Assembly (NCBI GenBank): GCA_024399135.1
Contig: JAKSHY010000002.1
Coordinates: 116,238-140,237 of the forward strand
Direction: 5' to 3'
DNA: 24,000 bases
Source of the DNA: Lachnospiraceae bacterium
GTDB taxonomy: Bacteria > Bacillota > Clostridia > Lachnospirales > Lachnospiraceae
Positions 105 to 13,099 of the stretch are shown one piece after another. The notes under the pieces were generated by a model. That model did no database searches and was not told the DNA's origin. It worked only from the letters and a program-made list of their open reading frames with translations. Position numbers and translations under genes: made by a program. Position 1 is the stretch's first letter, and every line of letters begins with the position of its first letter.

Positions 105-135
105 ATCAAAATAGGACCTCCTGTATAGAAGGTCC
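105..135 (-). terminator. Putative intrinsic terminator downstream of the DUF1524 ORF
   Basis: GGACCT (114-119) pairs with AGGTCC (130-135), giving a 6-bp stem and 10-nt loop. On the minus strand it is followed by TATTTTGATTG. Confidence 0.45.
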
Positions 136-157
136 CTAATTCTTTGATGCTCTTTAA

Positions 158-1231
158 TTAGTTTGCCAAAACAGTTTCTCGCGTTTCATCAAACACCTTA
201 ATAAACAAATCCCCTCTTTGACTCTTCAATTCTTCGATATTTGTAATATCAGAATACTTACCAAAATCTTTTTCTTCGATTTCTTCATATTTGGTGATTT
301 GTGATTTTAACCAAGCATCTGTTATTTCATTTAAGGCTTTACTCTTTTTAGCAATATTGTCTGTTTTAGGCAGCAATGCCAGATTCGTTAAACTATCCTT
401 CATAATAGAGTTTGCCATATTGTTTCCACCAAACTTTTCTTGTGGAATTATGTGGTCAACTTCAATCTTATCTGCCGAACTATTATAAGGCTCAATATTC
501 TTTAATGAATAGTAATAATACAAAATAGGTGTCATCGTTTTCTGTGTTACTGGCTGACCATTATAAGAACCAGATAGAGCACCTTCTATAAATGTCTTCC
601 ACTCTTGCTTTGCAACTGGTAAAATTCTGTTCTTCCAGTCTTTAATATCTGCAGACATTTTGGAGTCACCAGAGCCTCTCCACACCTTAGTAGAATATTC
701 GAAAACCAATCTATCAAAAAGAATTCGAGCATCTCGCTGAAACGCCTTGTATTGCGCGCCACTCACAGTTGGACAACCCTTATCTTTCCAATCCTCTAAC
801 AAAATAGCTATAAACTCCAAAGAAATCGCATTTCCAAGTAATTTAGCCATCGGCTTATCCCATGACTGAAAATACTTAAAAAATGTATCCGTCATAAGAA
901 TTTCGCATACTTTATTTATATCATTTACCAAGTCATCAATATCCGTGTCCCAATTAATATTTTTACCTTTTTCTAAACTTGAAACACTTTGCGCTGACAT
1001 TCCTTGTGCGCATACTGAACTGATAAGTTTGAAGCCTAAAGTTATTTTATCCATAGAAATTTCATCATGAATAACTGTTGAATCAAATATCAATCGTTTC
1101 TTATCAATTCTTGAAATCAATGTGGCAGCTAAATCCCATCTAACAACTCCATCCGGCTCTTCAACTCCCAAATTTTTATACATATCTTTTACAAGAAGCA
1201 AACGGTAACAACAAGTAACATATGGTAACAA
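158..1231 (-). CDS. DUF1524 / HNH-type nuclease domain protein (GmrSD C-terminal-half-like), apparently missing the N-terminal DUF262 half; possibly a 5'-truncated remnant
   Basis: The C-terminal motif VDHIIPQ...(N)...NLALLPKTDNIAKKSK is typical of the DUF1524 His-Me finger. No DGQQR/ParB-like DUF262 motif is present. The first 10 track codons are encoded by the GTAACA decamer repeats, so the first plausible ATG is 1183 (MYKNLG), and it has no convincing SD. Confidence 0.6.
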   Translation of the reverse strand: MLPYVTCCYRLLLVKDMYKNLGVEEPDGVVRWDLAATLISRIDKKRLIFDSTVIHDEISMDKITLGFKLISSVCAQGMSAQSVSSLEKGKNINWDTDIDDLVNDINKVCEILMTDTFFKYFQSWDKPMAKLLGNAISLEFIAILLEDWKDKGCPTVSGAQYKAFQRDARILFDRLVFEYSTKVWRGSGDSKMSADIKDWKNRILPVAKQEWKTFIEGALSGSYNGQPVTQKTMTPILYYYYSLKNIEPYNSSADKIEVDHIIPQEKFGGNNMANSIMKDSLTNLALLPKTDNIAKKSKALNEITDAWLKSQITKYEEIEEKDFGKYSDITNIEELKSQRGDLFIKVFDETRETVLAN

Positions 1232-1240
1232 TCAGTAACA
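1201..1240. repeat. Four tandem 10-bp units, each ending in GTAACA (aacgGTAACA acaaGTAACA tatgGTAACA atcaGTAACA)
   Basis: Read directly from the sequence. GTAACA occurs at 1205-1210, 1215-1220, 1225-1230 and 1235-1240, an exact 10-bp period. Confidence 0.85.
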
Positions 1241-1371
1241 AACCACAAATCGGCAAGCAATGTCTCTGTCCAGACAGACACACGAGCGCTTGCTGGTAGT
1301 TGCTCCCAAGCCCTTCAAACAATCCGGAGGATTGGACTACGCTGATTATGAATAAAACTTTTAATCCAACA

Positions 1372-3396
1372 CTAACTTTCCGCTAATTCATTTTCCATTT
1401 CTTTTATTTTGTCTAAATTAACTTCGAAGAGTTTATAATACTTCTTTTCTAAGTGCTTTTTTCTTTTCTCTGTCAATATATTAACTACTTCAAAAATATT
1501 CACTTTCTTATTCGTTATAAAAGAAGCAACACACCCAACAAATGGTGGAACTATCGCTAATCCACTAATTAAATATGTCTTGTAAGTAGCATTTAAAAAA
1601 ATATATGCAATAATAATTCCAATATAATATAAAACAACTAAGATCCTAAATCCATTTTTAAATACTTTTGTTCTCTTATCTATCATTCTATCTGCTTTTT
1701 CTTTTATCTTTAAGCAATCAGAATAACGTTTTCTCAACTCCGTCTTAGCTTTTTCTCTTAATTCTTCTTTTTCTAAAATAAGTTGATTTTTTTCGGAGCT
1801 ATTATTCAATATATTCTCGTCTTTTTTCTTTAAAATGGCTTTGTATTCCTCAATTGCCCTATCTCGTTCTTTTAATTCACTATCTAATCTTTCTTTCTCT
1901 GATTGATATATTGACAAATCTTTTTCGGACAAGAAATCTAACACATCGTCCAGAACTCTTATTTCTATTTCTTCTGGTTTCTTTGCTTCTTCTCTTAACG
2001 AAAGAATGACATCCGCCATCTGTTCAGCGTCAAGTTTTTTATTCCGATAATCATCATAAGCCTTTTCATATTTTTCTGAGACCGATTGTGATATCATACT
2101 TGACAGCACGATTTTAGCCTTTAGCAAGACGCTGAAATTTGAAGGAAAATCTTTTGCACCAAATCCTTTATTTAAATCAAACCATAATCTATTAGTAATA
2201 CCACTCATATTAATTGCTAACGGAATTTTTCTTACTGCCATATCATTAGAAATAAACAACATTTTGCCAACTTCAGTTAGTACAATATGCTGACAGGATT
2301 TCAAGTCATCTACATCATTTTCTTTTCTTAAAATATTTACATAATTAATATGTTTTATATATCTAAATTTATCATCCGAAAGCTCATATTTTGCAATACA
2401 TTCCTCGCTTTCAAGATTATATTTCTGATTAGCCTCTTCATAATAGTTATATCCATCAGCTTGAACTATTCCTTTTGCTTTAAGTAAGCTAAAGAAAGCA
2501 GCTTTCTTTTCAATAACATCTGCTGCAGTCTTACAACCGTTTACAATCGTGTTCATCGCATAATTTTCGACATCTACAATATCATTTCCAAGAACTATAT
2601 TTTCTGCTTTTGTAAAAAATTTATCGATCTCAATTTTAACATCTTCAAAATACCTCACTTTTATATTATGTGAGCCACTTTTACTATTCATTTCATATAT
2701 TAGGCTAAGCAAATCCTCCACATGTCTTTTAAATACCTCTCCATTATATCCGGCCAAGTGAAATAAAATCTCTATCTCAGCATATAATATAATAGGTTTA
2801 TTCCAAGCCCGTCTTTCTGAAACATTACTATTATGATTAATGCCCGCATACAAAACAGCGCCTTCTTTAATTGTATTAATCATTGCCATAATATCTTTAT
2901 CATCCTGTTTTTCTACAATATAAGCACTTATGACATCTGAAAAATGGTTTCCATTTGATTCATCCAATAAAAAAGCACAAAATTCCTTAACTAATTGTTC
3001 TTTTTCTTTTGCAGATAATTCTCCTCTTTTTTCTTCTGCAAATTTTTCAAGTTCACGTATTACATTATCGCTTTTCGAAATAGCATTTTGACATTGTTCA
3101 TCAATTGAAGAATTTGGAAGTTTACTTATATCAACTGTATATTGATTATTCTCTCTCGATACATAATCTATTTTCTTTAAAGAAGTCTGAATAACATAAT
3201 CTGGAATACAAAATCCATACTGTGCTCGAATTTTTTCAGAAATATCCGTAATTCCAAAACAATATAAACCTGTACCTATAACTATTCCCTCAACAAAACG
3301 TGAAACAATAAAATAAATATCACTTTTTCCATCATTATATAATTGTCTAAATGTAACCAAAGACGCTAAATTTTTAACTTCTGTACTTAATCTCAT
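1372..3396 (-). CDS. Hypothetical 674-aa protein: globular N-terminal two-thirds with no motif I recognise, a long charged coiled-coil, then two C-terminal TM helices
   Basis: ATG at 3396 (MRLSTEV) lies 13 nt after the hsdR TAG (3412..3410), with GAAGGAA between them. The track start at 3429 overlaps hsdR and has no SD. The heptad-like K/E-rich region is SEKERLDSELKERDRAIEEYKAILKKKDE...EKEELREKAKTELRKRY. The hydrophobic segments are FRILVVLYYIGIIIAYIFL and LISGLAIVPPFVGCVASFI (about nt 1500-1650). Confidence 0.8.
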   Translation of the reverse strand: MRLSTEVKNLASLVTFRQLYNDGKSDIYFIVSRFVEGIVIGTGLYCFGITDISEKIRAQYGFCIPDYVIQTSLKKIDYVSRENNQYTVDISKLPNSSIDEQCQNAISKSDNVIRELEKFAEEKRGELSAKEKEQLVKEFCAFLLDESNGNHFSDVISAYIVEKQDDKDIMAMINTIKEGAVLYAGINHNSNVSERRAWNKPIILYAEIEILFHLAGYNGEVFKRHVEDLLSLIYEMNSKSGSHNIKVRYFEDVKIEIDKFFTKAENIVLGNDIVDVENYAMNTIVNGCKTAADVIEKKAAFFSLLKAKGIVQADGYNYYEEANQKYNLESEECIAKYELSDDKFRYIKHINYVNILRKENDVDDLKSCQHIVLTEVGKMLFISNDMAVRKIPLAINMSGITNRLWFDLNKGFGAKDFPSNFSVLLKAKIVLSSMISQSVSEKYEKAYDDYRNKKLDAEQMADVILSLREEAKKPEEIEIRVLDDVLDFLSEKDLSIYQSEKERLDSELKERDRAIEEYKAILKKKDENILNNSSEKNQLILEKEELREKAKTELRKRYSDCLKIKEKADRMIDKRTKVFKNGFRILVVLYYIGIIIAYIFLNATYKTYLISGLAIVPPFVGCVASFITNKKVNIFEVVNILTEKRKKHLEKKYYKLFEVNLDKIKEMENELAES

Positions 3397-3409
3397 TTTC
3401 TCATTCCTT

Positions 3410-6400
3410 CTACGCTGCCGCATTGGCATTTATTGTCTCTATAACCTTCCTAATTCCCATCCACACATTCAGATCTGTAAATATTTCAACCACACTTCCC
3501 TGGTCTGTAAAAGGTGATTCCTGAAGAACAGAAAGATCCTTCATCATTCCGTTGTGAACGATATATTCCACTATCTGATTCACAAAATATATCTGCCTGC
3601 TATCAAGGCTTGTGCTTGTCAGATATTCTGAGAAAGCTTCCTTGGCAGCATTCATATCAAGACCAACGATCTCACGAACTAATTCGCCTAATGGCTTCTG
3701 TCCATACTCATGCTCATAATCCTGCTTAGTACCAACCTCATTCCAAAGGATATCCTCAAGTGTTGATATATCAGAACTTGTAAGAGGCTGATTAGTCTTA
3801 AGCTTTGCAATTACAACATTATCTTGATGTTGCCTAATATAGAATTCAGCTTTAGCTTTGTAATTCTTCAATTCATCATTTTCAAGCTCAGATTCCTTCC
3901 ATTCCACAGACAAAAGATCATCTTCAAAATTCGTATCATAACGAAGCTTATGCTTCGGAATATACTTCATAAGATCACGGAGTTTTTCTCTGATTTCTTC
4001 AAATTCATTGATACCGGCATTATCAAGATAATCTGTATTTAGAATCTTCTGAATCAAATCGCTCTGCATCTGAATCTCAGGAATATTTGCCACACTGGCA
4101 ATACCTTCTACCTTCTTATAAAGGTCGCTTCTTGCTCGTGTATATTTCTTGCCTACAAGATAAGCAAGTTCTATGCCATACATAAGTGCATCAAATCTTA
4201 CTGCACTCGCCTCATCATCATCCGGCAAAATGAGTGGTGCCAGTTCTTCCCTGACAATCAATGTGTCCTCATAGGTAAGACACTGATAATTAGTTTCCGC
4301 AGAATATAAATCCACATATTTCAAATGCTGACGAACTGCAAAATTGTCTCTTGGTAACTCCTGCACCTTTTCAGACATTTGTTTTACCAAAAGATTTCTA
4401 TATGCAATGAGTCTTTCAATCTGATAATCAATATCCTGCAATTTATAAGAAATCTCAAATTTCAAGTTAAAGATAGCTCCCTGTAGAGCAATCATATTGG
4501 CAGTTGCTTTACCTTTATTCATTCGGAAGAATTCAAAGTTTCCGCAGAAATCAAATATATAGAACTTCTGCTTATCTTCCCCATCAATAAGTCCAGGACA
4601 AAGTCTGGTACCACGTCCAATCATCTGCCAGAATTTTGCCTTACTCATAACCTTCTTGAAGAATACAAGGTTTATTACTTCCGGTACATCAATACCGGTA
4701 TCCAGCATATCAACAGAGATAGCAATCTGTGGCATCTTCTTTGGATCAGAGAATTCATCTATAGCACTCTGGGCATAGGTCATATAGTTATCAATCACCT
4801 TTGCATAATCCGGAAGATGTGGATACTCCTTATGGAATACTTCAAGTATCTTTTCAGCATGATCATGATTCTTTGCAAATATAATGGTTTTACCAATCTT
4901 CTGACCATAATCTATCTTGATTCCATTGGTCATAAGTGTATGGAGAACCTGACGAATTGTATCCTCATTGAAAATCCATGTATTTAATGCAGATGAACCT
5001 ATAGACTCCGGAAGCTCACCATTTTCATCCTCAAAGGTAGCCTCATACTCTTCTTTATCTTTCTCTGATAAATCATCATAAACAATACCCTGTTCAATGA
5101 ATTTCAGTTTTGATTCTACCGAAACATAGTCAACAAGATATCCATCCTTTACTGCCTGAGCTAAATCGTAACCATAGGTAGGCACACCATTTTCCAGTTC
5201 AAATACTTCATAAGTATTTTTATCAATTTCATCCTTTGGAGTTGCTGTTAATCCTACCAATGGCGCATCGAAATAGGTAAAAATATCGCGATATTTATTA
5301 TAAATTGATCTATGGGCCTCATCACAGATTACCAGGTCAAAATGGCCACAGGTAAACAGTTTCCCATCGTTATCATTAACCGTATCAATGCAGTTAATCA
5401 TGGTCTGATATGTAGAAAATACGCAGTGAGCGTTATAATTATCTTTTTCCTCACACAGGTTCGTGCATGACAAATTAGGAAGCATATTTACAAAGCTTCT
5501 CTTTGCCTGTGTAACCAGCGAATTTCTATCTGCAAGGAAAAGAATATTCTTTACCCAGCCCGCTTTCAGTAAGCAATCGCAAAGAGCAATAACAGTTCTT
5601 GTCTTACCTGAACCCGTTGCCATTACAAGAAGTGCTTTTCTACGATTCTTCTCGTCAAAGCTATGACATACTGCCTTAATTGCTGATTCTTGATAATAAC
5701 GGCCGGCAATGTTTTTATCTACACTTACATGCTTTAGGCTTGTACGCATAGTAAGCAAATTGAACCACTTCTCCAAATCTCTCTTGGAATAGATTACAGA
5801 GCACTTTCTCTCAGGATATTGGTCATCGATGATATGCGTATCAAATCCATTGGTAAGAAATACAACTGGTCTCCTCTTATATTTCTGTTCCAATAAATCG
5901 GCATATAATTTTGCCTGCTGTCTACCCTTGGATACATCTACGCAGGTCCGTTTTGCTTCAATTACTGCCAATGGCTTATGCATGTCATCGTAAAGTACAT
6001 AGTCTGCATAACCCACTTCTGATTTGTTAGGCATACCCGGAAGCTCTACTTCATTAATCCAGTCCTTTCCTTCGGTCCAGCCTGCATCCATAAGCATAGA
6101 ATCAATATAAAGCTTTCTAGTTTTATACTCAGATAAATCCAATGGCTTTGGAACATAAGTCTGCTGCTGTTCCTGTCTACGGGCAGATAATTCTTCCTTG
6201 AGAGAAGCATTTTCAGCAATCAGCTTCTGTAAGTCAAGTTCCTGCTGTGCATTCTTCTCCTGCTCCTTAGCAAGTTCTTCTTTGGTCTGCGCTGCAGTTT
6301 CTTTAGATTTTTTCGCTTTTTCTATACGGTCACTAATGATCTTCTTATCAAAGACACGTTCTTCATACTGGTCAGAGTAGCAATAAGCAATAAAATCCAA

Positions 6401-6754
6401 ATAAATAAACAGATTCTCCAGGCATAGCATGGCCTCATCTCTGCCAAGCTTCTTGTTACTGTGAGCCACATTATTGCCGCAACGACGAATATAATCCATA
6501 CGCTTCCAAAGATCAGCACCTATAATCTGTCTGTATTCTTCTGCATTCATAAGGCTCTGCAAATTATCCTGGTAAGGCATCTCCAGTTCCTTATCCACGG
6601 AATACATCCATTTCAGAGCGAACTCCATCGCCATGCGGCTATTAATAATACTAGCCTCCGGATCCATAAGAATAATCTTCTCAGCTGATATTGCCACATC
6701 CTCAAAGGAAGCGAATTTCGATTCATTTTTCAAATAATCAAAGTTGGTTATCAT
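3410..6754 (-). CDS. hsdR: Type I restriction endonuclease R subunit (N-terminal DUF4145-like domain, coiled-coil linker, PD-(D/E)xK nuclease, SF2 helicase, EcoEI_R_C-like tail)
   Basis: Motifs seen: YADYVLYD...VIEAKR (nuclease), MATGSGKTRT (motif I), VICDEAHRS (DEAH), GLTATP (III), QMIGRGTR (VI). ATG at 6754 (MITNFDYL) has GGAGG 9 nt upstream. The track start at 6763 is TTG. Confidence 0.95.
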   Translation of the reverse strand: MITNFDYLKNESKFASFEDVAISAEKIILMDPEASIINSRMAMEFALKWMYSVDKELEMPYQDNLQSLMNAEEYRQIIGADLWKRMDYIRRCGNNVAHSNKKLGRDEAMLCLENLFIYLDFIAYCYSDQYEERVFDKKIISDRIEKAKKSKETAAQTKEELAKEQEKNAQQELDLQKLIAENASLKEELSARRQEQQQTYVPKPLDLSEYKTRKLYIDSMLMDAGWTEGKDWINEVELPGMPNKSEVGYADYVLYDDMHKPLAVIEAKRTCVDVSKGRQQAKLYADLLEQKYKRRPVVFLTNGFDTHIIDDQYPERKCSVIYSKRDLEKWFNLLTMRTSLKHVSVDKNIAGRYYQESAIKAVCHSFDEKNRRKALLVMATGSGKTRTVIALCDCLLKAGWVKNILFLADRNSLVTQAKRSFVNMLPNLSCTNLCEEKDNYNAHCVFSTYQTMINCIDTVNDNDGKLFTCGHFDLVICDEAHRSIYNKYRDIFTYFDAPLVGLTATPKDEIDKNTYEVFELENGVPTYGYDLAQAVKDGYLVDYVSVESKLKFIEQGIVYDDLSEKDKEEYEATFEDENGELPESIGSSALNTWIFNEDTIRQVLHTLMTNGIKIDYGQKIGKTIIFAKNHDHAEKILEVFHKEYPHLPDYAKVIDNYMTYAQSAIDEFSDPKKMPQIAISVDMLDTGIDVPEVINLVFFKKVMSKAKFWQMIGRGTRLCPGLIDGEDKQKFYIFDFCGNFEFFRMNKGKATANMIALQGAIFNLKFEISYKLQDIDYQIERLIAYRNLLVKQMSEKVQELPRDNFAVRQHLKYVDLYSAETNYQCLTYEDTLIVREELAPLILPDDDEASAVRFDALMYGIELAYLVGKKYTRARSDLYKKVEGIASVANIPEIQMQSDLIQKILNTDYLDNAGINEFEEIREKLRDLMKYIPKHKLRYDTNFEDDLLSVEWKESELENDELKNYKAKAEFYIRQHQDNVVIAKLKTNQPLTSSDISTLEDILWNEVGTKQDYEHEYGQKPLGELVREIVGLDMNAAKEAFSEYLTSTSLDSRQIYFVNQIVEYIVHNGMMKDLSVLQESPFTDQGSVVEIFTDLNVWMGIRKVIETINANAAA

Positions 6755-6780
6755 AAGGCACAACCTCCCAACACTCTAAA

Positions 6781-7305
6781 CTATTTAAACAATTCAGGTT
6801 CTTCATTGTACAAATCAATTAACCATGGTTGTGGGACATATACAAGTATCATTTCATTATCCCAACCAAGTGAAACAGCCTGATCAGGTTGATGTATAAA
6901 GAGTCCATTTAATAAATACACAGTGTCACCTGAATTTCTGTCCAATTTAATTGCTTTCTCTTTGCTACGCAAAAGTTTACATACTATTTTCATTTGCTCT
7001 GGACTTAACTTTTGTAGTTTCTTTCTTTGATTCTCCTTGAATTTCTTATTTTTTCTTTTCGAACATATATAAGAAAATATTGATGAAATAGCTAAAGTAA
7101 AAATCAAAGACAGACTAAGTAAGAAAATAATACCAATTATTTGCTTCCACATATCAGGCAAGTTATTCAGTGACATTTTTTCAAGAATTTCTATTGGAAG
7201 AAACAATAGCATGCCTGACAATATTGCTACAGCAATGAGTGCCGGTGTTATTTTCTTAAAATTATCAAATGTTTTCTCTGCTATACTATCAACCGATATA
7301 TTCAT
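6781..7305 (-). CDS. Two-TM membrane protein with a C-terminal soluble domain; resembles the superinfection-exclusion SieB family (PF14163) from memory, unverified
   Basis: TM segments: ITPALIAVAILSGMLLFLPI and IIGIIFLLSLSLIFTLAISSIF. These are followed by a basic stretch KRKNKKFKENQRKK, then LSPEQMKIVCKLL...SGDTVYLLNGLFI...PQPWLIDL. Its ATG directly abuts the upstream stop (TAAATG at 7308..7303). Confidence 0.6.
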   Translation of the reverse strand: MNISVDSIAEKTFDNFKKITPALIAVAILSGMLLFLPIEILEKMSLNNLPDMWKQIIGIIFLLSLSLIFTLAISSIFSYICSKRKNKKFKENQRKKLQKLSPEQMKIVCKLLRSKEKAIKLDRNSGDTVYLLNGLFIHQPDQAVSLGWDNEMILVYVPQPWLIDLYNEEPELFK

Positions 7306-7644
7306 TTATCTTCGACCTTTCTTCATACCTTGTGATATTTGTTGACGAATTTCAGGCATCTTTATAGCTTCAGTCATAAGCGTATTCATCATATCTGCCC
7401 CAAGTTTATTTTCCATTTCCTTCTGCATCAGTTCAAGCTGATGTTTATGCTCGATTTCTTGTTTTTCAAGATCATATTTATGTTTCTCTCGTTCAGTTTC
7501 CAAATCTAATTCATGTTGCTTAATTAACTTTTCAATTTCTCCTTTTGTCTCTTTACGAGATATCATTACAGAAGATATTGCTGCAATTAAAGCACCAAGA
7601 ACTGAAACTATATATGGCATTATTTCTTTGATAATCTCTAACAT
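7306..7644 (-). CDS. Small single-TM protein with a highly charged coiled-coil tail (112 aa), unknown function
   Basis: N-terminal TM segment PYIVSVLGALIAAISSVMI, followed by KETKGEIEKLIKQHELDLETEREKHKYDLEKQEIEHKHQLELMQKEMENK. AGGAG lies 7 nt upstream and overlaps the hsdS stop codon. Confidence 0.75.
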   Translation of the reverse strand: MLEIIKEIMPYIVSVLGALIAAISSVMISRKETKGEIEKLIKQHELDLETEREKHKYDLEKQEIEHKHQLELMQKEMENKLGADMMNTLMTEAIKMPEIRQQISQGMKKGRR

Positions 7645-7653
7645 AACTTTCTC

Positions 7654-8790
7654 CTAACCAAAATATTTTTGCATTAATGAATCAAATAATAACTGTGTCT
7701 CGTCCAATGCCTTCTGCACTACAACTTTTGATTTGTCGACTTGTTTGACAAAATCTGCGAACTGCACTTGTTCGTTCACTGGAACTAGCGGAACTGGTAA
7801 TTCCTTCAACTTATTTAAAGGCAATTGTTTTAGTGTTGACTGATTCGTTGAACCAAACATAAAACGCTGTGCCTCTTCTGTAGTCAAATAATGACTAATA
7901 AATAATCTATCCGCCTTATTTTTATCAATTCTTATTACTGCTAAATTTCTAGTAACATTCATTCCTTTGCATCTTTCATCGCTAAGCATAACCTGCCCTG
8001 GTTGTCCAATAACCTGAACTAGAATTTCATCACCAATTAACCTTGTTTTTTTATACTTACACTCTATATCTGATGCAACCCTGTAAACATTATCTAAGTT
8101 TAAGCTTCCGTTCTTGAAATCAGAAGGTCTTACCATGGGAATACCATCTTCAACATTATCACCTGGTACAACTATTCCGTATGATAATCCAGCACCTTCT
8201 TGAATCAATTCAATAAGTTGCTTTTTCTCATATTCCTGACTTCCAAACAGCTCGACAAATCGGGCTTTGATGAGGTCATCCACAGTCTCTAGTTCTTTTT
8301 TTCGTAAATCAATAATAGATTTTACTTTTTCTATCGAATCAACAATATTGCTTTGTTCTTCCAACACTGGGAATCTAATCAGCATTGATAAAAAATCCGC
8401 ATCCGGTATACTTCTTCGTCTAGCAGTTGTTCCTCGTAATTTTGACTTATAATATTCAATACTTCTCGGAGATCTTAATGCATATTCTAAATATTTAGGA
8501 ATAACCTTGTCTGTATCCACATCCCATATTTTATATGCTGGACTGACAATTCCTTCATCTGCCAATTCCTGAACCGCAAGAACCCCCTCATCGATAGGAA
8601 AGCTCTCCACCAATTGATGTCTAGAAACAACCTGATATGATGACTGATCAACAGATGCTATTTGTTTTTTGAATCTGTCATCTTGGAACATCAATCCTTC
8701 ATGCATAGTCATTGAAAGAACAGAATATTTTTCATTCCCACACTTTTTTACTTTTGCCTTTTTTATAAGTTTTCCAACTTCTATTTCCAT
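7654..8790 (-). CDS. hsdS: Type I restriction-modification specificity subunit with two target-recognition domains
   Basis: The layout is typical of HsdS. The central conserved helix is LRKKELETVDDLIKARFVELFG and the C-terminal conserved helix is VVQKALDETQLLFDSLMQKYFG. The gene lies between hsdM and hsdR. Confidence 0.9.
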   Translation of the reverse strand: MEIEVGKLIKKAKVKKCGNEKYSVLSMTMHEGLMFQDDRFKKQIASVDQSSYQVVSRHQLVESFPIDEGVLAVQELADEGIVSPAYKIWDVDTDKVIPKYLEYALRSPRSIEYYKSKLRGTTARRRSIPDADFLSMLIRFPVLEEQSNIVDSIEKVKSIIDLRKKELETVDDLIKARFVELFGSQEYEKKQLIELIQEGAGLSYGIVVPGDNVEDGIPMVRPSDFKNGSLNLDNVYRVASDIECKYKKTRLIGDEILVQVIGQPGQVMLSDERCKGMNVTRNLAVIRIDKNKADRLFISHYLTTEEAQRFMFGSTNQSTLKQLPLNKLKELPVPLVPVNEQVQFADFVKQVDKSKVVVQKALDETQLLFDSLMQKYFG

Positions 8791-8834
8791 CTACATCATC
8801 CCTACAAATCCGAATTTAGGACTTGCCCTTTCCT

Positions 8835-10055
8835 TTAAAAGTATTCCGCCAACTTTACTTGTCCTGCCTCATAACTAATCACCAAATTTATACAAGCAAA
8901 AGTCTTAAATGACTTCATTTCAAATAGATCCTCACTTTTCTTCACAAGAAGATTTCTATTATTTTTATCATCAGATAACTTTATCAAATATTTTTTTATG
9001 TTTGTTTTATTTAGACCTTTTATTGGTTTAGGCAAATATCCGTCTATGTACGCATTTACCTGACTGGACGAAAAATCACTTTTCTCGTAATTACATAATG
9101 CATAAAGGACATGATTCAAACCATTTGACTCAGATATATTATCATTGTAGAGTCCACGAATAACCGAATATTCTGCTGCCAATCTTGTTTTCACCCAACC
9201 TTCTTGAGCTTTTATAAATATTTCATCGTTCATTAAAATCTTATCGCTTTCATTGTCGTAATAAGATATAGCAAGGCAATAGCACATTTCATTAACACTC
9301 TGTGGAATACCAGCAGTGCATTTAAGCACATAATTAGATAGATCATCAATCATAGGAACCGTAAAACCACATTCTCTAAACTTTTTAGACACAAAGCTAT
9401 TACATTCTGTATCATTAAAACCTCTAACAGATATTGTTTGAATTCGGCTTGCTATTGTCTGATAATTGGGCATTTTCTCAAAATACTGCATTATACTATT
9501 TGTGGCTCCAATAGCCAAAAAACGAACATTATTTTTTATCATTAGCGGATCATCTGCCATCGTTATAATGCAACTCAAATCCTCTAACATTTTTTCATCG
9601 TTGATAATTGTTTCAAAATTATCTAGCACCACAAGTTGATTTTTATTATCTTGAAGAAACAGCTTAAAAAAATCATTACTTACTTCATATGTTCTACTAG
9701 CCTCAAGATTACCAGCTGCAATGCCTGCATTTATCCCTGCTTCTTTGGTTTCGATTCTTTCCACTAACACTTCTGAATATAATGCAGAAAAATATTGATA
9801 GAACCCACCTTTCATTTTTACATCAGACAAATTGACAAATTTATATTTTCCTGCAACACTTTTCATAATATGAGTTGTTAGCCATGTCTTACCGCATCCA
9901 CTTTCTCCAGCAACAAATACATATTTATATCTATTTATCGCTCTTAAGAGTTCTTTTTCATAATATTCTCTTACTATGTAGCTTTTCTCATTAAATTCTT
10001 CCCTATTTCGAAAAATTGTATTTATTTTTTCTTCTGTTATACTCATTATCAACAA
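8835..10055 (-). CDS. P-loop NTPase (AAA+/ORC-Cdc6-like or AAA_22-like ATP-binding protein) inserted between hsdM and hsdS
   Basis: Walker A is VAGESGCGKTW and Walker B-like is QLVVLDNFE. A sensor-1-like FLAIGATN is followed by IASRI. The C-terminal roughly 150 aa could be a winged-helix or lid domain. The track start is TTG; an ATG at 10046 (MSITEEK) is the more likely start. Confidence 0.75.
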   Translation of the reverse strand: MLIMSITEEKINTIFRNREEFNEKSYIVREYYEKELLRAINRYKYVFVAGESGCGKTWLTTHIMKSVAGKYKFVNLSDVKMKGGFYQYFSALYSEVLVERIETKEAGINAGIAAGNLEASRTYEVSNDFFKLFLQDNKNQLVVLDNFETIINDEKMLEDLSCIITMADDPLMIKNNVRFLAIGATNSIMQYFEKMPNYQTIASRIQTISVRGFNDTECNSFVSKKFRECGFTVPMIDDLSNYVLKCTAGIPQSVNEMCYCLAISYYDNESDKILMNDEIFIKAQEGWVKTRLAAEYSVIRGLYNDNISESNGLNHVLYALCNYEKSDFSSSQVNAYIDGYLPKPIKGLNKTNIKKYLIKLSDDKNNRNLLVKKSEDLFEMKSFKTFACINLVISYEAGQVKLAEYF

Positions 10056-10069
10056 CCTGTCTTCTTTGA

Positions 10070-11575
10070 TTAATGTATTTTTATCAATTTCTCAAGTTCT
10101 TCCATTTCCTTGCCAATCTCCATCTCAATCTCACGGATGTTAGCCATAATTTCCGATGTAGGTGGGTACTCTACTGCCACATATTCCACCTCTTTATATT
10201 TATTGATGCTGAGATCATAATCATTGTCTTCTATTTCCTTCTTAGGCACCATGAACGACTTATCTGTACGCTTTCTGTCCTGTTCACCATCAAGATTCTT
10301 AAATCTCTGAATGATGTCAGGAATATCGTTGTCTGCCACTACTGAACGCTTATCATCTAAGCTAAATCCGTCTGCAGTCATATCATAGAACCATACATTA
10401 TCTGTTCCGCCATGCTCTGTCTTTGTAAATACAAGAATAGCGGTCGATACCCCGGCATATGGTTTAAATACACCAGAAGGCATTGAAATAACTGCCTCTA
10501 ATCTCTGATTCTCAACGATTTCTTTTCTAATTGCTTTGTGTGCAGTAGAAGAACCAAACAACACGCCATCAGGTACGATACATGCACATCTTCCACCTAT
10601 TCTTAACATACGCACAAACAATGCCAGAAACAGTAATTCTGTCTTCTTGGTACTGCAAACCTTAAGAAGATCTGCCGATACAATATCTGCATCCAAGCTT
10701 CCTTTGAATGGTGGATTTGCTAATATCAATGAATATTTATCCTTATCAGGATTCTGATCAGATAAGCTATCTCTATATTCAATAAAAGGACTTTCCACTC
10801 TATGATTCATCATATTCATAGCACCGATACGAAGCATGGTTCTATCCATATCAAAACCATGAAACATATGATTCATGAAATGGTCCTTCTTCTGTTTATC
10901 GTAGAAGATTTCTTCCTTCTTGTTATTCCACAGATATTCCCCAGCTTCCACAAGGAAACCAGCTGTACCACAAGATGGATCACAAATAATATCATCTGCT
11001 TTAGGATCCATCAGTTCTACCATCATCTTAATAATATGACGAGGCGTTCTAAACTGACCATTCACGCCTGCTGTAGCAAGCTTTGAAAGTAAATACTCAT
11101 ACACATCACCTCTGGCATCAGAATCATTTAACTTTGCCATCTGCGTGTAAAGTTCATCCATAGCATCTACAACCTTAGAAAGCATAAGCGGTGTAGGAAG
11201 CTTGAAGATAGCATCGTCCATATACTTTGAAAATGCACTGTCCTTACTGGCATGAAGATTCTTTATAAATGGGAATACCATTTCCTGCATAACAGAATAC
11301 ATTCTATCAGCGGGATAATCTCTAAACACTGACCACTTAAACTGTGTACCGTCGATAGTTCTTTCACCAATCTTTACTTCCTTGGCAAATACGCTCTCAT
11401 ATGGAAGACCAAGCATCGCGCTTTCCTTAGCGTGTGTATTATCTGATACATCTAGGTCATGGATAAACATAAGATATGTCATCTGCTCAATCACATCCAG
11501 TGGATTGGTAAGTCCACCAGTCCAGAAAATTTCCCATAAGCTATCAATTCTATTTTTCAATTCACCTGTTATCAT
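10070..11575 (-). CDS. hsdM: Type I restriction-modification N6-adenine DNA methyltransferase subunit
   Basis: HsdM_N-like N-terminus (ELKNRIDSLWEIFWTGGL...MTYLMFI). AdoMet motif ICDPSCGTAGFL. Catalytic motif LANPPFKGS. Confidence 0.95.
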   Translation of the reverse strand: MITGELKNRIDSLWEIFWTGGLTNPLDVIEQMTYLMFIHDLDVSDNTHAKESAMLGLPYESVFAKEVKIGERTIDGTQFKWSVFRDYPADRMYSVMQEMVFPFIKNLHASKDSAFSKYMDDAIFKLPTPLMLSKVVDAMDELYTQMAKLNDSDARGDVYEYLLSKLATAGVNGQFRTPRHIIKMMVELMDPKADDIICDPSCGTAGFLVEAGEYLWNNKKEEIFYDKQKKDHFMNHMFHGFDMDRTMLRIGAMNMMNHRVESPFIEYRDSLSDQNPDKDKYSLILANPPFKGSLDADIVSADLLKVCSTKKTELLFLALFVRMLRIGGRCACIVPDGVLFGSSTAHKAIRKEIVENQRLEAVISMPSGVFKPYAGVSTAILVFTKTEHGGTDNVWFYDMTADGFSLDDKRSVVADNDIPDIIQRFKNLDGEQDRKRTDKSFMVPKKEIEDNDYDLSINKYKEVEYVAVEYPPTSEIMANIREIEMEIGKEMEELEKLIKIH

Positions 11576-11578
11576 GAA

Positions 11579-12640
11579 TTAATCCTCCTTATCCCAATTC
11601 CATGTGTATTTAGTATATCTTCCGCCACCGATTTTTGTAATCTTTCCTTCTTTTACAAGTTCCGTCAGGGTTCTTTGTACTGTAGTCTGGCTAATCCCCG
11701 GTGTATTCTCCATAATCTCTGTCTTGGTTATGGTTCCAAGATGATTCTTTATCAATTCCTCTATCCTATCCGGCTTTGGAACCTTCTTTTCTTCTACTAC
11801 CTTTGCTCTGTCAAAGAATTCTCTATAGGCAGCTGTGATGATTCCAAGAACATATTTTACAAATGGTTCATAATCATTCTCATCTTCTATCCAGCCAGTA
11901 GAGCTTTCCTTCAACGCTTCGTAGTAGCTATCCTTTGTCTTTTCAATCAGCTTCTCCAAACTGATATATTTTCCAACGATATAATCATTCTGATATAGCA
12001 ATAATAATGTCAGTAATCTACTCATTCTGCCATTACCATCATTGAAAGGATGAATACATAAAAAATCGATAATGAACATTGGCATAATCAAGAGCGAATC
12101 CGCCTCACTTCTATTGATAGCCTCGTTGTAAGCAGCGCACAGATTAGTAATAGCTTCTGGTGTTTCCCATGCAGGTAATGGTCGGAATCTCACGAACTTA
12201 TTGCCTTGATTATCCTCTTCCTCAATTACATTATCTGCCGCCTTGAATTTTCCACCCTTTGCTGCATTTTCAAATCGATATAAATCTCTATGCAACTGCA
12301 AGATAAATGTATCTCTAACCGGAATATGCGGAAAGCTTTCATGAATCGTATTAAGCACATCTCTATATCCGGCAATCTCTCGCTCATTTCTGGTTCTTGG
12401 CATTGTCTTATCCAAAACAATCTTCTTTAATCGATCGTCTGATGTATAAATACCTTCAATTTTATTAGAACTCTCGGTACTCTGAATCTTGGCTACTTCA
12501 ACAAGACTCTCAAGAACATCCGCATGCTTTTCTGCAATTAAACGCTGCTCTCCTCTGTATTCATGAATCGTTGTAAGATAATTCACAATGTCCGGAGTTA
12601 ATAACTTTTTCCATTTTTCTGTATAATCAAAACTTCTCAT
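11579..12640 (-). CDS. Fic/DOC family protein (probable AMPylase) with an N-terminal inhibitory-helix motif and a C-terminal winged-HTH
   Basis: Fic motif HPFNDGNGRMSRLL. The [ST]xxxE[GN] inhibitory motif appears as SNKIEG. The C-terminal ISQTTVQRTLTELVKEGKITKIGGGRYTKY is HTH-like. GAGG lies 8 nt upstream of the ATG. The stop is 3 nt from the hsdM ATG, with AAGGAGGA inside the fic 3' end. Confidence 0.9.
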   Translation of the reverse strand: MRSFDYTEKWKKLLTPDIVNYLTTIHEYRGEQRLIAEKHADVLESLVEVAKIQSTESSNKIEGIYTSDDRLKKIVLDKTMPRTRNEREIAGYRDVLNTIHESFPHIPVRDTFILQLHRDLYRFENAAKGGKFKAADNVIEEEDNQGNKFVRFRPLPAWETPEAITNLCAAYNEAINRSEADSLLIMPMFIIDFLCIHPFNDGNGRMSRLLTLLLLYQNDYIVGKYISLEKLIEKTKDSYYEALKESSTGWIEDENDYEPFVKYVLGIITAAYREFFDRAKVVEEKKVPKPDRIEELIKNHLGTITKTEIMENTPGISQTTVQRTLTELVKEGKITKIGGGRYTKYTWNWDKED

Positions 12641-12660: not shown

Positions 12661-12765
12661 CTCAATTTCGTCATTTTATACATTTTGACTTAATTAGATT
12701 ATATACTTCAACTTCGTCAAATGTAAACATTATCTTCGTCATTTTTAACAATATGACGAAATTAA
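12661..12765 (-). promoter_or_regulatory. Putative promoter and operator region of the fic-hsd operon
   Basis: On the minus strand: -35 TTTACA (12727..12722), an 18-nt spacer, -10 TATAAT (12703..12698). There are four TTCGTCA boxes: 12667-12673, 12713-12719 and 12735-12741 on the plus strand, and 12754-12760 inverted. The last two form the palindrome TTCGTCAT-N10-ATGACGAA. One box overlaps a TTGACG -35-like hexamer. Confidence 0.5.
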
Positions 12766-12783: not shown

Positions 12784-12831
12784 TAAAAACCGGAAACTAC
12801 CTATTTTCTTATTTTAGGCAATTTCCGGTTT
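12784..12831 (-). terminator. Intrinsic terminator insulating the fic-hsd operon from upstream transcription (partly bidirectional)
   Basis: AAACCGGAAA (12787-12796) pairs with TTTCCGGTTT (12822-12831), and CCTA (12800-12803) pairs with TAGG (12815-12818) across a 3x3 internal loop. A T5 run follows on the minus strand and a T3 run on the plus strand. Confidence 0.6.
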
Positions 12832-13015: not shown

Positions 13016-13099
13016 TTATTCTCCACAAAGTCCTGATTTATAGGCTTTTCCGATAAAAGCACGGGATTTGCCATGGCATACAAATAAAACTCGTATCAT
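13016..13099 (-). pseudogene. 27-codon ORF whose start resembles the N-terminus of an LMW protein-tyrosine-phosphatase/ArsC-type protein; probable gene remnant
   Basis: AGGAG lies 6 nt upstream of the ATG. The peptide is MIRVLFVCHGKSRAFIGKAYKSGLCGE. The VLFVCxG start matches the P-loop strand, but the CX5R(S/T) motif is broken. I could not recognise a continuation in any frame. Confidence 0.3.

Follow-up and report, generated by a model that had tools for sequence, protein, structure and literature searches.

The stretch of DNA studied here (the window, 24,000 nucleotides of contig JAKSHY010000002.1) derives from a Lachnospiraceae metagenome-assembled genome and carries on its minus strand a type I restriction-modification (RM) operon (genes MCQ2080453-461) with additional genes inserted between and after hsdM, hsdS and hsdR. 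The reading that we favor, with a probability of about 0.68, is that of an RM operon backed by exchangeable cargo of the abortive-infection type under common control. According to this model, the locus would belong to a horizontally mobile family of type I RM operons composed of a fixed backbone and three cargo positions, at which unrelated small toxin or defence modules would be swapped by recombination. One promoter of the sigma-70 type with four operator half-sites would serve the whole unit, and its repression by the winged helix-turn-helix (wHTH) domain of the leader protein Fic would parallel the action of RptR on the RM/DarTG2 island. The inserts would behave as independent second-line defences that ride the RM operon for co-regulation and co-transfer, and not as subunits of an eight-part machine, while the two membrane proteins among them would probably compromise the membrane once triggered.

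The locus is chromosomal and consists of an unbroken run of eight co-directional open reading frames (ORFs) between positions 12640 and 1372, in the order fic, hsdM, an ATPase gene, hsdS, orf112, orf174, hsdR and orf674. The original prediction had described these eight genes, and both their positions and every one of the gaps that it listed were recovered exactly. Only 3 nt separate fic from hsdM, with an AAGGAGG within the 3' end of fic; hsdM is followed after 14 nt by a TTG codon at 10055, or after 23 nt by an ATG at 10046, for the ATPase; and 44 nt lie between the ATPase gene and hsdS. The hsdS to orf112 junction measures 9 nt, with an AGGAG that overlaps the hsdS stop codon, orf112 and orf174 abut (0 nt, TAAATG), and hsdR and orf674 start 26 nt (ATG at 6754) and 13 nt (ATG at 3396) after the genes that precede them. 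Each of these eight ORFs has conserved homologues elsewhere, indicating that all of them are real genes.

Evidence for exchangeable cargo comes from the comparison with orthologous operons. Metagenome contigs were scanned with HsdR, which yielded 80 loci with HsdR proteins 77-92% identical, and these were annotated with the window proteins. The shared backbone comprises Fic-wHTH, HsdM, HsdS and an HsdR fused to a HEPN domain, and the comparison defines cargo positions between hsdM and hsdS (slot 1), between hsdS and hsdR (slot 2) and after hsdR (slot 3). Because fic is the first gene, ahead of hsdM, in 36 of the 42 informative loci, it is considered part of the backbone and not an insert. A conserved leader, AAATTCGGATTTGTAGGGATGATGTAG (AAATTCGGATTTGTAGGGATGA), directly precedes hsdS across loci, whatever cargo lies upstream, and marks the 3' edge of slot 1. 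The contigs of 46 loci include all of hsdM, hsdS and hsdR; in 35 of these loci slot 1 or 2 contains cargo (in 12, both slots do), 11 have at least three extra genes, and 25 distinct architectures can be distinguished. The commonest cargo is a recombinase together with a second hsdS (29 loci), followed by a DUF3990 gene with its partner (12 loci) and AbiJ (8 loci). Other families are Bro-N, RhuM-Fic, DUF3644/EC042_2821, YhcG nuclease, MNT/HEPN, AbiH and GmrSD-HNH, and in some loci an AAA_13 ATPase occupies the position after hsdR.

None of the 80 orthologous loci carries the ATPase or orf674 of the window, and a single one (L102) carries the SieB-like gene orf174, in a frameshifted form; the inserts do not, therefore, co-vary. 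This was the outcome of a check on co-variation in orthologous hsd operons that had been set in advance, which returned at least 25 alternative cargo architectures instead. The combination of inserts present in the window is unique among the 104 related loci examined. Relative to the window, Fic, HsdM and HsdR are 88%, 92% and 77% identical in L094 and 61%, 79% and 92% identical in L025, and such gene-by-gene identities show a recombinant mosaic. Heavy embedding is thus normal in the operon family, and the combination found in the window is a one-off recombinant. The view of the extra genes as three insertions holds, as they are co-oriented, tightly packed behind one regulated promoter and missing from orthologous operons. 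The further proposal that the eight genes form one functional unit was not borne out, given their frequencies among the orthologues and the presence of each insert elsewhere without the others.

Two features of the slots can be added at this point. The DUF3990 module, situated in the S|R slot and the commonest non-recombinase cargo, has two genes (about 153 + 153 aa), the partner being without a Pfam family (L028, L032, L035, L042, L050, L058, L061, L076, L077, L079 and others). In addition, two conserved non-coding elements of about 150-350 nt fill the hsdM|hsdS slot, one in L027, L036, L068 and L073 and the other in L027, L050, L088 and L094. One of them opens with a duplicated hsdS leader (AAATTCGGATTTG...), and neither matches Rfam. 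Rfam scans covering the whole window and four related loci left the operon, its spacers and the non-coding elements of slot 1 without any match.

At the level of transcription, the signals are consistent with a single, regulated unit. An intrinsic terminator on the minus strand (12784..12831; an 18-bp hairpin of -25 kcal/mol, z = -7.1 against shuffles, followed by UUUUU) would insulate the operon from upstream transcription. Downstream of it lies the promoter/operator region (12667..12760, minus strand), with a score of 11/12 in the promoter scan, a -35 element TTTACA at 12722-12727 and a -10 element TATAAT at 12698-12703 spaced by 18 nt, the top promoter-like site in 14 kb. Four copies of the half-site (A)TGACGAA occur here; for TGACGAA this means 4 copies within 94 bp (12667-12760), compared with 2.0 expected in the whole 24-kb window. 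Two half-sites, at 12754-12760 and 12735-12741, form an inverted pair just upstream of the -35, a third (12713-12719) falls in the promoter spacer and the fourth (12667-12673) lies between the -10 and the ribosome-binding site. A single upstream promoter/operator with an insulating terminator had been predicted, and both were found as a single strong promoter-like site and the hairpin at 12784-12831. Within the unit, the sequence scan detected no intergenic terminator-like site, and promoter-like sites are not enriched (53 found against 60.2 expected from shuffles). Several matches of 9-10/12 do occur inside genes, for instance at 8987-8958 upstream of hsdS, and they carry no weight because the total is below the shuffle expectation.

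The tight gene packing and the Shine-Dalgarno sites located within genes suggest a single transcript from about 12697 to a terminator at about 113. The 140-nt spacer after orf674 (1232..1371, minus strand) contains no terminator and is not unusually structured (fold z = -0.49), and the first terminator-like hairpin downstream of the operon is found at 113..136 on the minus strand, where a 10-bp GC-rich stem precedes a T-run (-18.2 kcal/mol, z = -3.6). The transcription unit probably continues to about 113 and includes a ninth ORF, so it is likely to be slightly longer than in the earlier account.

The candidate for the regulator of this unit is encoded by its first gene. fic (11579..12640, minus strand) specifies a SoFic-like class II Fic protein of 353 aa (Pfam Fic 1e-13) with a C-terminal wHTH, whose families are matched at residues 291-345 in Pfam. 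Its catalytic HxFx(D/E)GNGRxxR motif and its N-terminal (S/T)xxxE(G/N) inhibitory motif are both intact: the active-site motif HPFNDGNGRMSR (residues 197-208) is kept in 36 of 37 orthologues and the inhibitory motif SNKIEG (residues 58-63) in all 37. The PADLOC SoFic model matches over nearly the full length (3.8e-42), and the score against the NCBIfam SoFic equivalog is 57.2 bits for a cut-off of 550. Upstream of the -35, the operator has the form of a palindrome, AATTnnnTCAT-N8-10-ATGAnnnAATT, with further half-sites in the promoter. Of 36 related loci (upstream regions of L009-L094), about 34 share this layout. Sites of the sequence ATGACGAA are the predicted targets of Fic.

The variable core of the operator changes on both arms of the palindrome together between loci, and the type of half-site tracks the start of the recognition helix of the Fic wHTH: SQTT is found with TGACGAA, SDTT with TGACTAA, SQVT with TGATAAA, SRIT with TGATGTA and SVVT with TGATTAA. 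The pairing of SQTT with TGACGAA recurs in two Fic clades that are just 69% identical to one another, and the closest Fic relatives of the window protein (86-88% identical) combine STTT or SMTT with TGACTAA-type sites. The pairing of wHTH residues and operator core represents a possible specificity code. It is most likely that the Fic wHTH binds the operator and autorepresses the whole operon, and the pattern suggests that SoFic-like proteins are able to act as operon repressors.

Regarding the cargo itself, the gene in slot 1 (8835..10055, minus strand) encodes an AAA+ ATPase of 403 aa, counted from the ATG at 10046, which is ORC/Cdc6-like and carries a winged helix at its C-terminus. Its matches to AAA/STAND families in Pfam are weak, and its AlphaFold2 (AF2) model (pLDDT 86) finds its best folds in 2qen, 2fna and archaeal Orc1/Cdc6, that is, ATPases of the ORC/Cdc6 or ATPase_2 type. 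Walker A (GESGCGKT) and Walker B (DNFE) are invariant among relatives. Just 12 homologues were found, and a pattern scan of viral contigs was negative. The relatives occur in the S|R slot of an orthologous operon (L006/7), alone (L004/5) and beside GmrSD/HEPN genes (L008). The window protein matches the PADLOC model PDC-S59 with E = 1.2e-6, residues 6-63 falling on profile positions 3-60 of 428 and covering the P-loop N-terminus alone; all 11 relatives match the same model, the best at 2.2e-9, again over the P-loop N-terminus only. It is a rare mobile single-gene defence candidate, distantly related to the listed candidate PDC-S59, and probably a DNA-sensing one.

Slot 3 is filled by orf674 (1372..3396, minus strand), whose product combines an N-terminal winged-helix-like region, an alpha/beta and helical core, a coiled coil of about 100 residues and a transmembrane (TM) hairpin (AF2 pLDDT 82.6; hydropathy), the latter at residues ~583-628 (window 1513-1650). 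Most of the 674 aa would thus form a large cytoplasmic portion, tied by the long coiled coil to the hairpin. It has no family in Pfam, NCBIfam, PHROG or PADLOC, and its model has no fold match in the PDB or BFVD. A profile search against PDB sequences returned just weak similarity in the coiled coil and to MCU-like C-termini (E >= 0.014). An invariant [D/E]-x-E...H...N motif (residues 207-218, after a predicted beta-strand) was considered as PIN-like; no tool supports this assignment and it is not claimed. The family is large, with 708 clusters at 50% identity for E <= 1e-30 and 988 for E <= 1e-10, and lengths of about 620-710 aa.

In seven Firmicute contexts, orf674 or its homologue is found twice directly after a type I hsdR (window and L003), directly after the type II restriction endonucleases Eco47II (L105) and NgoMIV (L108), before McrBC and a type I RM system (L001), and alone (L002, L110). 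On plasmids of Citrobacter and Pantoea, distant relatives occur by themselves. Such contexts are typical of a mobile gene that provides defence or exclusion on its own, and the family has a notable tendency to trail restriction genes. In L105 and L108 the homologue begins 43-45 nt after a type II RM pair formed by a C5 methylase and an Eco47II-like or NgoMIV-like endonuclease, and in L105 it is carried by an integrase-bearing element and followed by a GmrSD_N gene. A distant homologue (L112; 32% identity, 625 aa, 5384-7261) is divergent beside a cI/LexA-type repressor gene (7267-7959) in a proteobacterial prophage. A gene position next to the prophage repressor is classic for exclusion or abortive-infection morons.

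The insert of slot 2 comprises two small genes. orf112 (7306..7644, minus strand) encodes a protein with a single N-terminal TM helix (hydropathy, residues 7-30) followed by a charged coiled coil (phrog_2542, 4e-8), and homologues of 104-114 aa occupy the same position in L009-L018, L021, L037 and L102. orf174 (6781..7305, minus strand) encodes a protein of the SieB family (Pfam PF14163, 8e-21), named 'superinfection exclusion B family protein' by NCBI, with two TM helices (16-44 and 51-82 by hydropathy) and a conserved cytoplasmic tail of about 90 aa. The match to PF14163 reaches 74.6 bits for a cut-off of 26, with residues 24-133 on profile positions 2-111 of 147. Close homologues number more than 217 and are uniformly about 174 aa long. 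orf112 is absent beside the SieB-like gene in L020, L022, L023 and L024 and present without it in L037; it is a dispensable partner of the SieB-like gene. An internal start comparable to that of Esc was considered for the SieB-like gene: Met44 is nearly invariant, and no Shine-Dalgarno sequence precedes it in 8 loci. In one SieB-carrying operon (L010, 2218-9739), a Tn7-like element with TnsA, TnsB, TniB/TnsC and TniQ interrupts hsdR at codon ~648.

Taken together, the three inserts look like defence or abortive-infection cargo and not like housekeeping genes, in line with the abortive-infection character that had been proposed for them. As for catalogued systems, the backbone protein Fic is SoFic-like and the ATPase is related to PDC-S59, while PADLOC contains no model for orf112, orf674 or the SieB-like gene.

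Several observations weigh against a carrier of independent, exchangeable cargo. The sample of orthologues is biased to gut metagenomes and to close HsdR orthologues; the correlation between wHTH and operator has one exception (L090) and is partly confounded by common ancestry; and the ATPase holds DNA-binding and ATPase domains only, with no recognisable effector domain, making a stand-alone action hard to explain. The location of the orf674 family directly 3' of a restriction-endonuclease gene in 4 of the 7 Firmicute contexts could reflect a functional link. Finally, in all 16 contexts recovered the SieB-like gene lies directly after hsdS and before hsdR, which hints at real functional coupling, and in L024 a SieB-like protein 45% identical starts 2 nt after hsdS in a different type I family, with an HsdM of 682 aa only 25% identical to that of the window and an HsdR of 1068 aa without DUF4145.

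The last point forms the basis of the alternative that survives best, although we consider it improbable: a guard of the PrrC kind confined to slot 2, where the SieB-family protein, alone or together with orf112, would serve type I RM complexes as a dedicated accessory. The HsdM/HsdS complex would hold the SieB-like protein inactive, and a phage anti-restriction factor that disables the enzyme would free it to poison or depolarise the membrane and abort the infection. Apart from the invariable hsdS|hsdR location, the short junction with hsdS (at most 9 nt, with the Shine-Dalgarno sequence on the hsdS stop codon) and the highly conserved C-terminal tail (52 invariant columns in 18 sequences) agree with this idea. 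So does the absence of copies from phage, plasmid and viral-contig collections, which sets the gene apart from canonical prophage sieB: tblastn searches of 50,697 phage records and of 72,556 plasmids both came back empty, as did the pattern scan of viral contigs (IMG/VR). PrrC itself is embedded near-exclusively in the same way. Nevertheless, 15 of the 16 contexts come from one operon family and amount to effectively two independent observations or lineages, and orthologous RM operons do without the gene (1/80), the same slot holding AbiH, DUF3990 pairs, the ATPase and others. Moreover, frameshifted copies of the SieB-like gene exist in L102 and possibly in L021, orf112 is split in L019, and the two genes occur without each other. 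A guard-like coupling to the RM complex is plausible for the SieB-like gene alone among the inserts, and it could constitute a variant in which a membrane effector, not an anticodon nuclease, is coupled to HsdS/HsdM and fires on anti-restriction proteins.

The family of orf674, which is large and lacks annotation (some 700-1000 clusters at 50% identity), could consist of single-gene abortive-infection effectors built from a sensor, a coiled coil and a TM hairpin and preferentially trailing restriction-endonuclease genes. We put forward only tentatively, with the odds clearly against it, the joint possibility of a SieB-like membrane guard analogous to PrrC, a single-gene abortive-infection effector family typified by orf674 and a SoFic-like protein acting as operon controller.

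It is considerably less probable that the inserts are not defences at all, being either selfish addiction or stabilisation modules or else regulators or chaperones of RM (for example in restriction alleviation or assembly) lodged at a permissive site. The alternative cargo of the orthologous loci is often toxin-antitoxin-like (MNT/HEPN, DUF3990 pairs, RhuM-Fic), the domain content of the ATPase would suit such a role, and a 'genomic sink' has been discussed for such loci (Payne et al. 2024, bioRxiv 10.1101/2024.01.29.577857). On the other hand, a toxin/antitoxin pair architecture cannot be recognised in any of the three inserts of the window, a homologue of orf674 sits at the classic moron position beside a prophage repressor, SieB is an abortive-infection family (Pfam PF14163; sieB of P22 and lambda), and embedded genes that have been tested experimentally generally proved to be defences. 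Least likely of all, and very improbable, is an integrated multi-layer system of eight genes whose accessories are functionally linked both among themselves and with the RM complex, for despite the one promoter, the tight or overlapping junctions, the defence-like features of all accessory genes and the HEPN domain of HsdR, the combination is unique among the related loci, the inserts co-occur nowhere else, every one of them turns up in a different slot or away from hsd loci, and the gene identities form a recombinant mosaic.

The remaining backbone genes encode the three subunits expected for type I RM. hsdM (10070..11575, minus strand) specifies a methyltransferase subunit of 501 aa (Pfam N6_Mtase 1.5e-61 and HsdM_N 6e-10; PADLOC MTase_I 1.7e-181), and hsdS (7654..8790, minus strand) a specificity subunit of 378 aa (Pfam Methylase_S 2e-17) that has two target-recognition domains, with the PADLOC Specificity_I models spanning residues 1-377. 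hsdR (3410..6763, minus strand) encodes an EcoAI/EcoEI-like protein of 1114 aa from the ATG at 6754, with a nuclease N-terminal domain, a superfamily 2 motor and a C-terminal domain (Pfam ResIII 3e-38, EcoEI_R_C 2e-19, HSDR_N and Helicase_C; PADLOC REase_I 1.4e-160). Its scores stay below the equivalog level for EcoAI/EcoEI (type IB), 256.5 against 550 bits for NCBIfam restrict_EcoAI and 294 against 729 for PRK11448, and by these profiles it appears related to the type IB enzymes without being an equivalog.

The N-terminal part of HsdR contains the DUF4145/HEPN domain (6413-6685, minus strand; Pfam DUF4145 3.8e-18), which the original prediction did not mention and whose R90...H98 motif (R-x2-GN-x3-H, at 6461-6487) is kept by 83 of the 84 orthologues. 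Fusions of the HEPN family DUF4145 to restriction endonuclease-helicase proteins have been described (Anantharaman et al. 2013, PMC3710099), and in RAZR the domain has proved to be a catalytic RNase that works through R146/H154 (PMC13017515). The spacing of R90 and H98 equals that of the catalytic residues of RAZR, and the restriction subunit may hold a built-in RNase function. RAZR is a zinc-finger-HEPN protein activated by assembly on phage proteins, whereas the domain here is fused to HsdR.

Downstream of orf674, the ninth co-directional ORF (158..1231, minus strand; 341 aa from the ATG at 1183) is preceded by a TGTTAC repeat array at ~1200-1242 with four tandem TTGTTACnnn repeats. Its residues 248-346 align with positions 479-588 of the 600 of the PADLOC HEC-05 profile (6.5e-6), and Pfam HNH_4 and GmrSD_C both score below cut-off. 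The resemblance concerns just the His-Me/HNH (DUF1524) C-terminal part of GmrSD-type enzymes, the DUF262 N-terminal domain being missing. The ORF has no Shine-Dalgarno sequence upstream, forms a singleton cluster and has no plasmid homologue. It is probably a remnant, and may derive from an earlier cargo of slot 3. On the other side, upstream, the operon is bordered by chromosomal genes of an ordinary kind (DUF1349, an Rce1-like protease, an ABC transporter, Na+/H+ exchangers and a GGDEF protein). The stretch of about 500 nt between the DUF1349 gene and the terminator is free of genes except for an ORF of 27 codons, MIRVLFVCHGKSRAFIGKAYKSGLCGE, at 13016-13099 on the minus strand, which we take to resemble low-molecular-weight phosphatase/ArsC-type proteins at their N-terminus and which the insertion of the island may have left as a scar.

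With regard to its significance, the locus offers a clear and well-delimited case of a type I RM operon as a putative regulated carrier of exchangeable second-line defences in Clostridia of the human and animal gut. It provides three concrete candidates outside PADLOC v2, namely the SieB-like protein, so far found only in type I RM operons, the widespread membrane-anchored orf674 family (670 aa), whose members repeatedly follow restriction genes, and the ORC/Cdc6-like ATPase. Some of the many proteins annotated as 'stand-alone' SoFic may in fact control the transcription of RM operons. Should the SieB-like gene turn out to be a guard of the PrrC type, it would be just the second mechanistic class of RM guard known.

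Among known systems, defence genes embedded in type I RM operons have been catalogued and are co-oriented with them in 96.7% of cases, and PrrC is hardly ever found outside such operons (Payne et al. 2024, bioRxiv 10.1101/2024.01.29.577857). The window agrees with this definition of embedding: the ATPase gene lies between hsdM and hsdS, and orf112 and orf174 between hsdS and hsdR, all on the same strand and missing from orthologous operons. Like the HEC/PDC embedded sets, where GmrSD-like guests are frequent, it includes an ATPase with a distant match to PDC-S59. TgvAB, in the type I RM locus of V. cholerae VPI-2, is a tested embedded case (PMC11411939). The closest counterpart is the RRDM island of enteropathogenic Escherichia coli, where seven ORFs (RptR-HsdM-HsdS-DarT-DarG-HsdR-M48 peptidase) depend on one autorepressed promoter and have been shown by experiment to act against phage (PMC12255303). 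Both are co-directional type I RM operons whose first gene encodes a DNA-binding protein, with repeated operator sites overlapping the promoter, an extra module between hsdS and hsdR and an extra gene after hsdR. They differ in the regulator, RptR being a 9-kDa four-helix protein that recognises TAGCTA and the leader here a 353-aa Fic-wHTH with a predicted palindrome of the ATGAnnnAATT type; in the cargo, which is DarTG2 in RRDM and an AAA+ ATPase, a SieB-like pair and orf674 here; and in the host, Gammaproteobacteria for RRDM and Clostridia for the window. The Fic leader is best viewed as an analogue of RptR and not as a member of its family.

EcoprrI-PrrC and the Campylobacter rlo loci, cited as precedents in the original prediction, are apt comparisons, as both carry genes other than hsdR, hsdM and hsdS between hsdS and hsdR. 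The near-exclusive S|R location of PrrC is shared by the SieB-like gene only; the ATPase and orf674 depart from it. PrrC is masked by the RM complex and released by the phage Stp peptide, and the likeness of the SieB-like protein to it lies in gene location. No window insert matches the PrrC or RloC models of PADLOC or Pfam, nor is the architecture of these two proteins, an ABC-ATPase plus an anticodon nuclease, found among them. The SieB-like protein resembles SieB of P22 and lambda in its match to PF14163 and in being a small two-TM protein of the inner-membrane type. The canonical sieB genes are carried by prophages, act by aborting the growth of superinfecting phage and contain an internally started antagonist, Esc; the clade of the window, in contrast, was not found in phage and viral collections and is located in type I RM operons. 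Similarly, SoFic, a Fic AMPylase of the Shewanella oneidensis type, is catalogued as a stand-alone defence gene, whereas the Fic of the window is the leader of a type I RM operon family, 3 nt before hsdM, with a co-varying operator. Type I RM operons with embedded defence genes are already well established, and the arrangement in the window is not new in kind; what the catalogues do not yet hold is a SieB-like clade tied to type I RM, the orf674 family and the apparent regulatory role of a SoFic-like protein.

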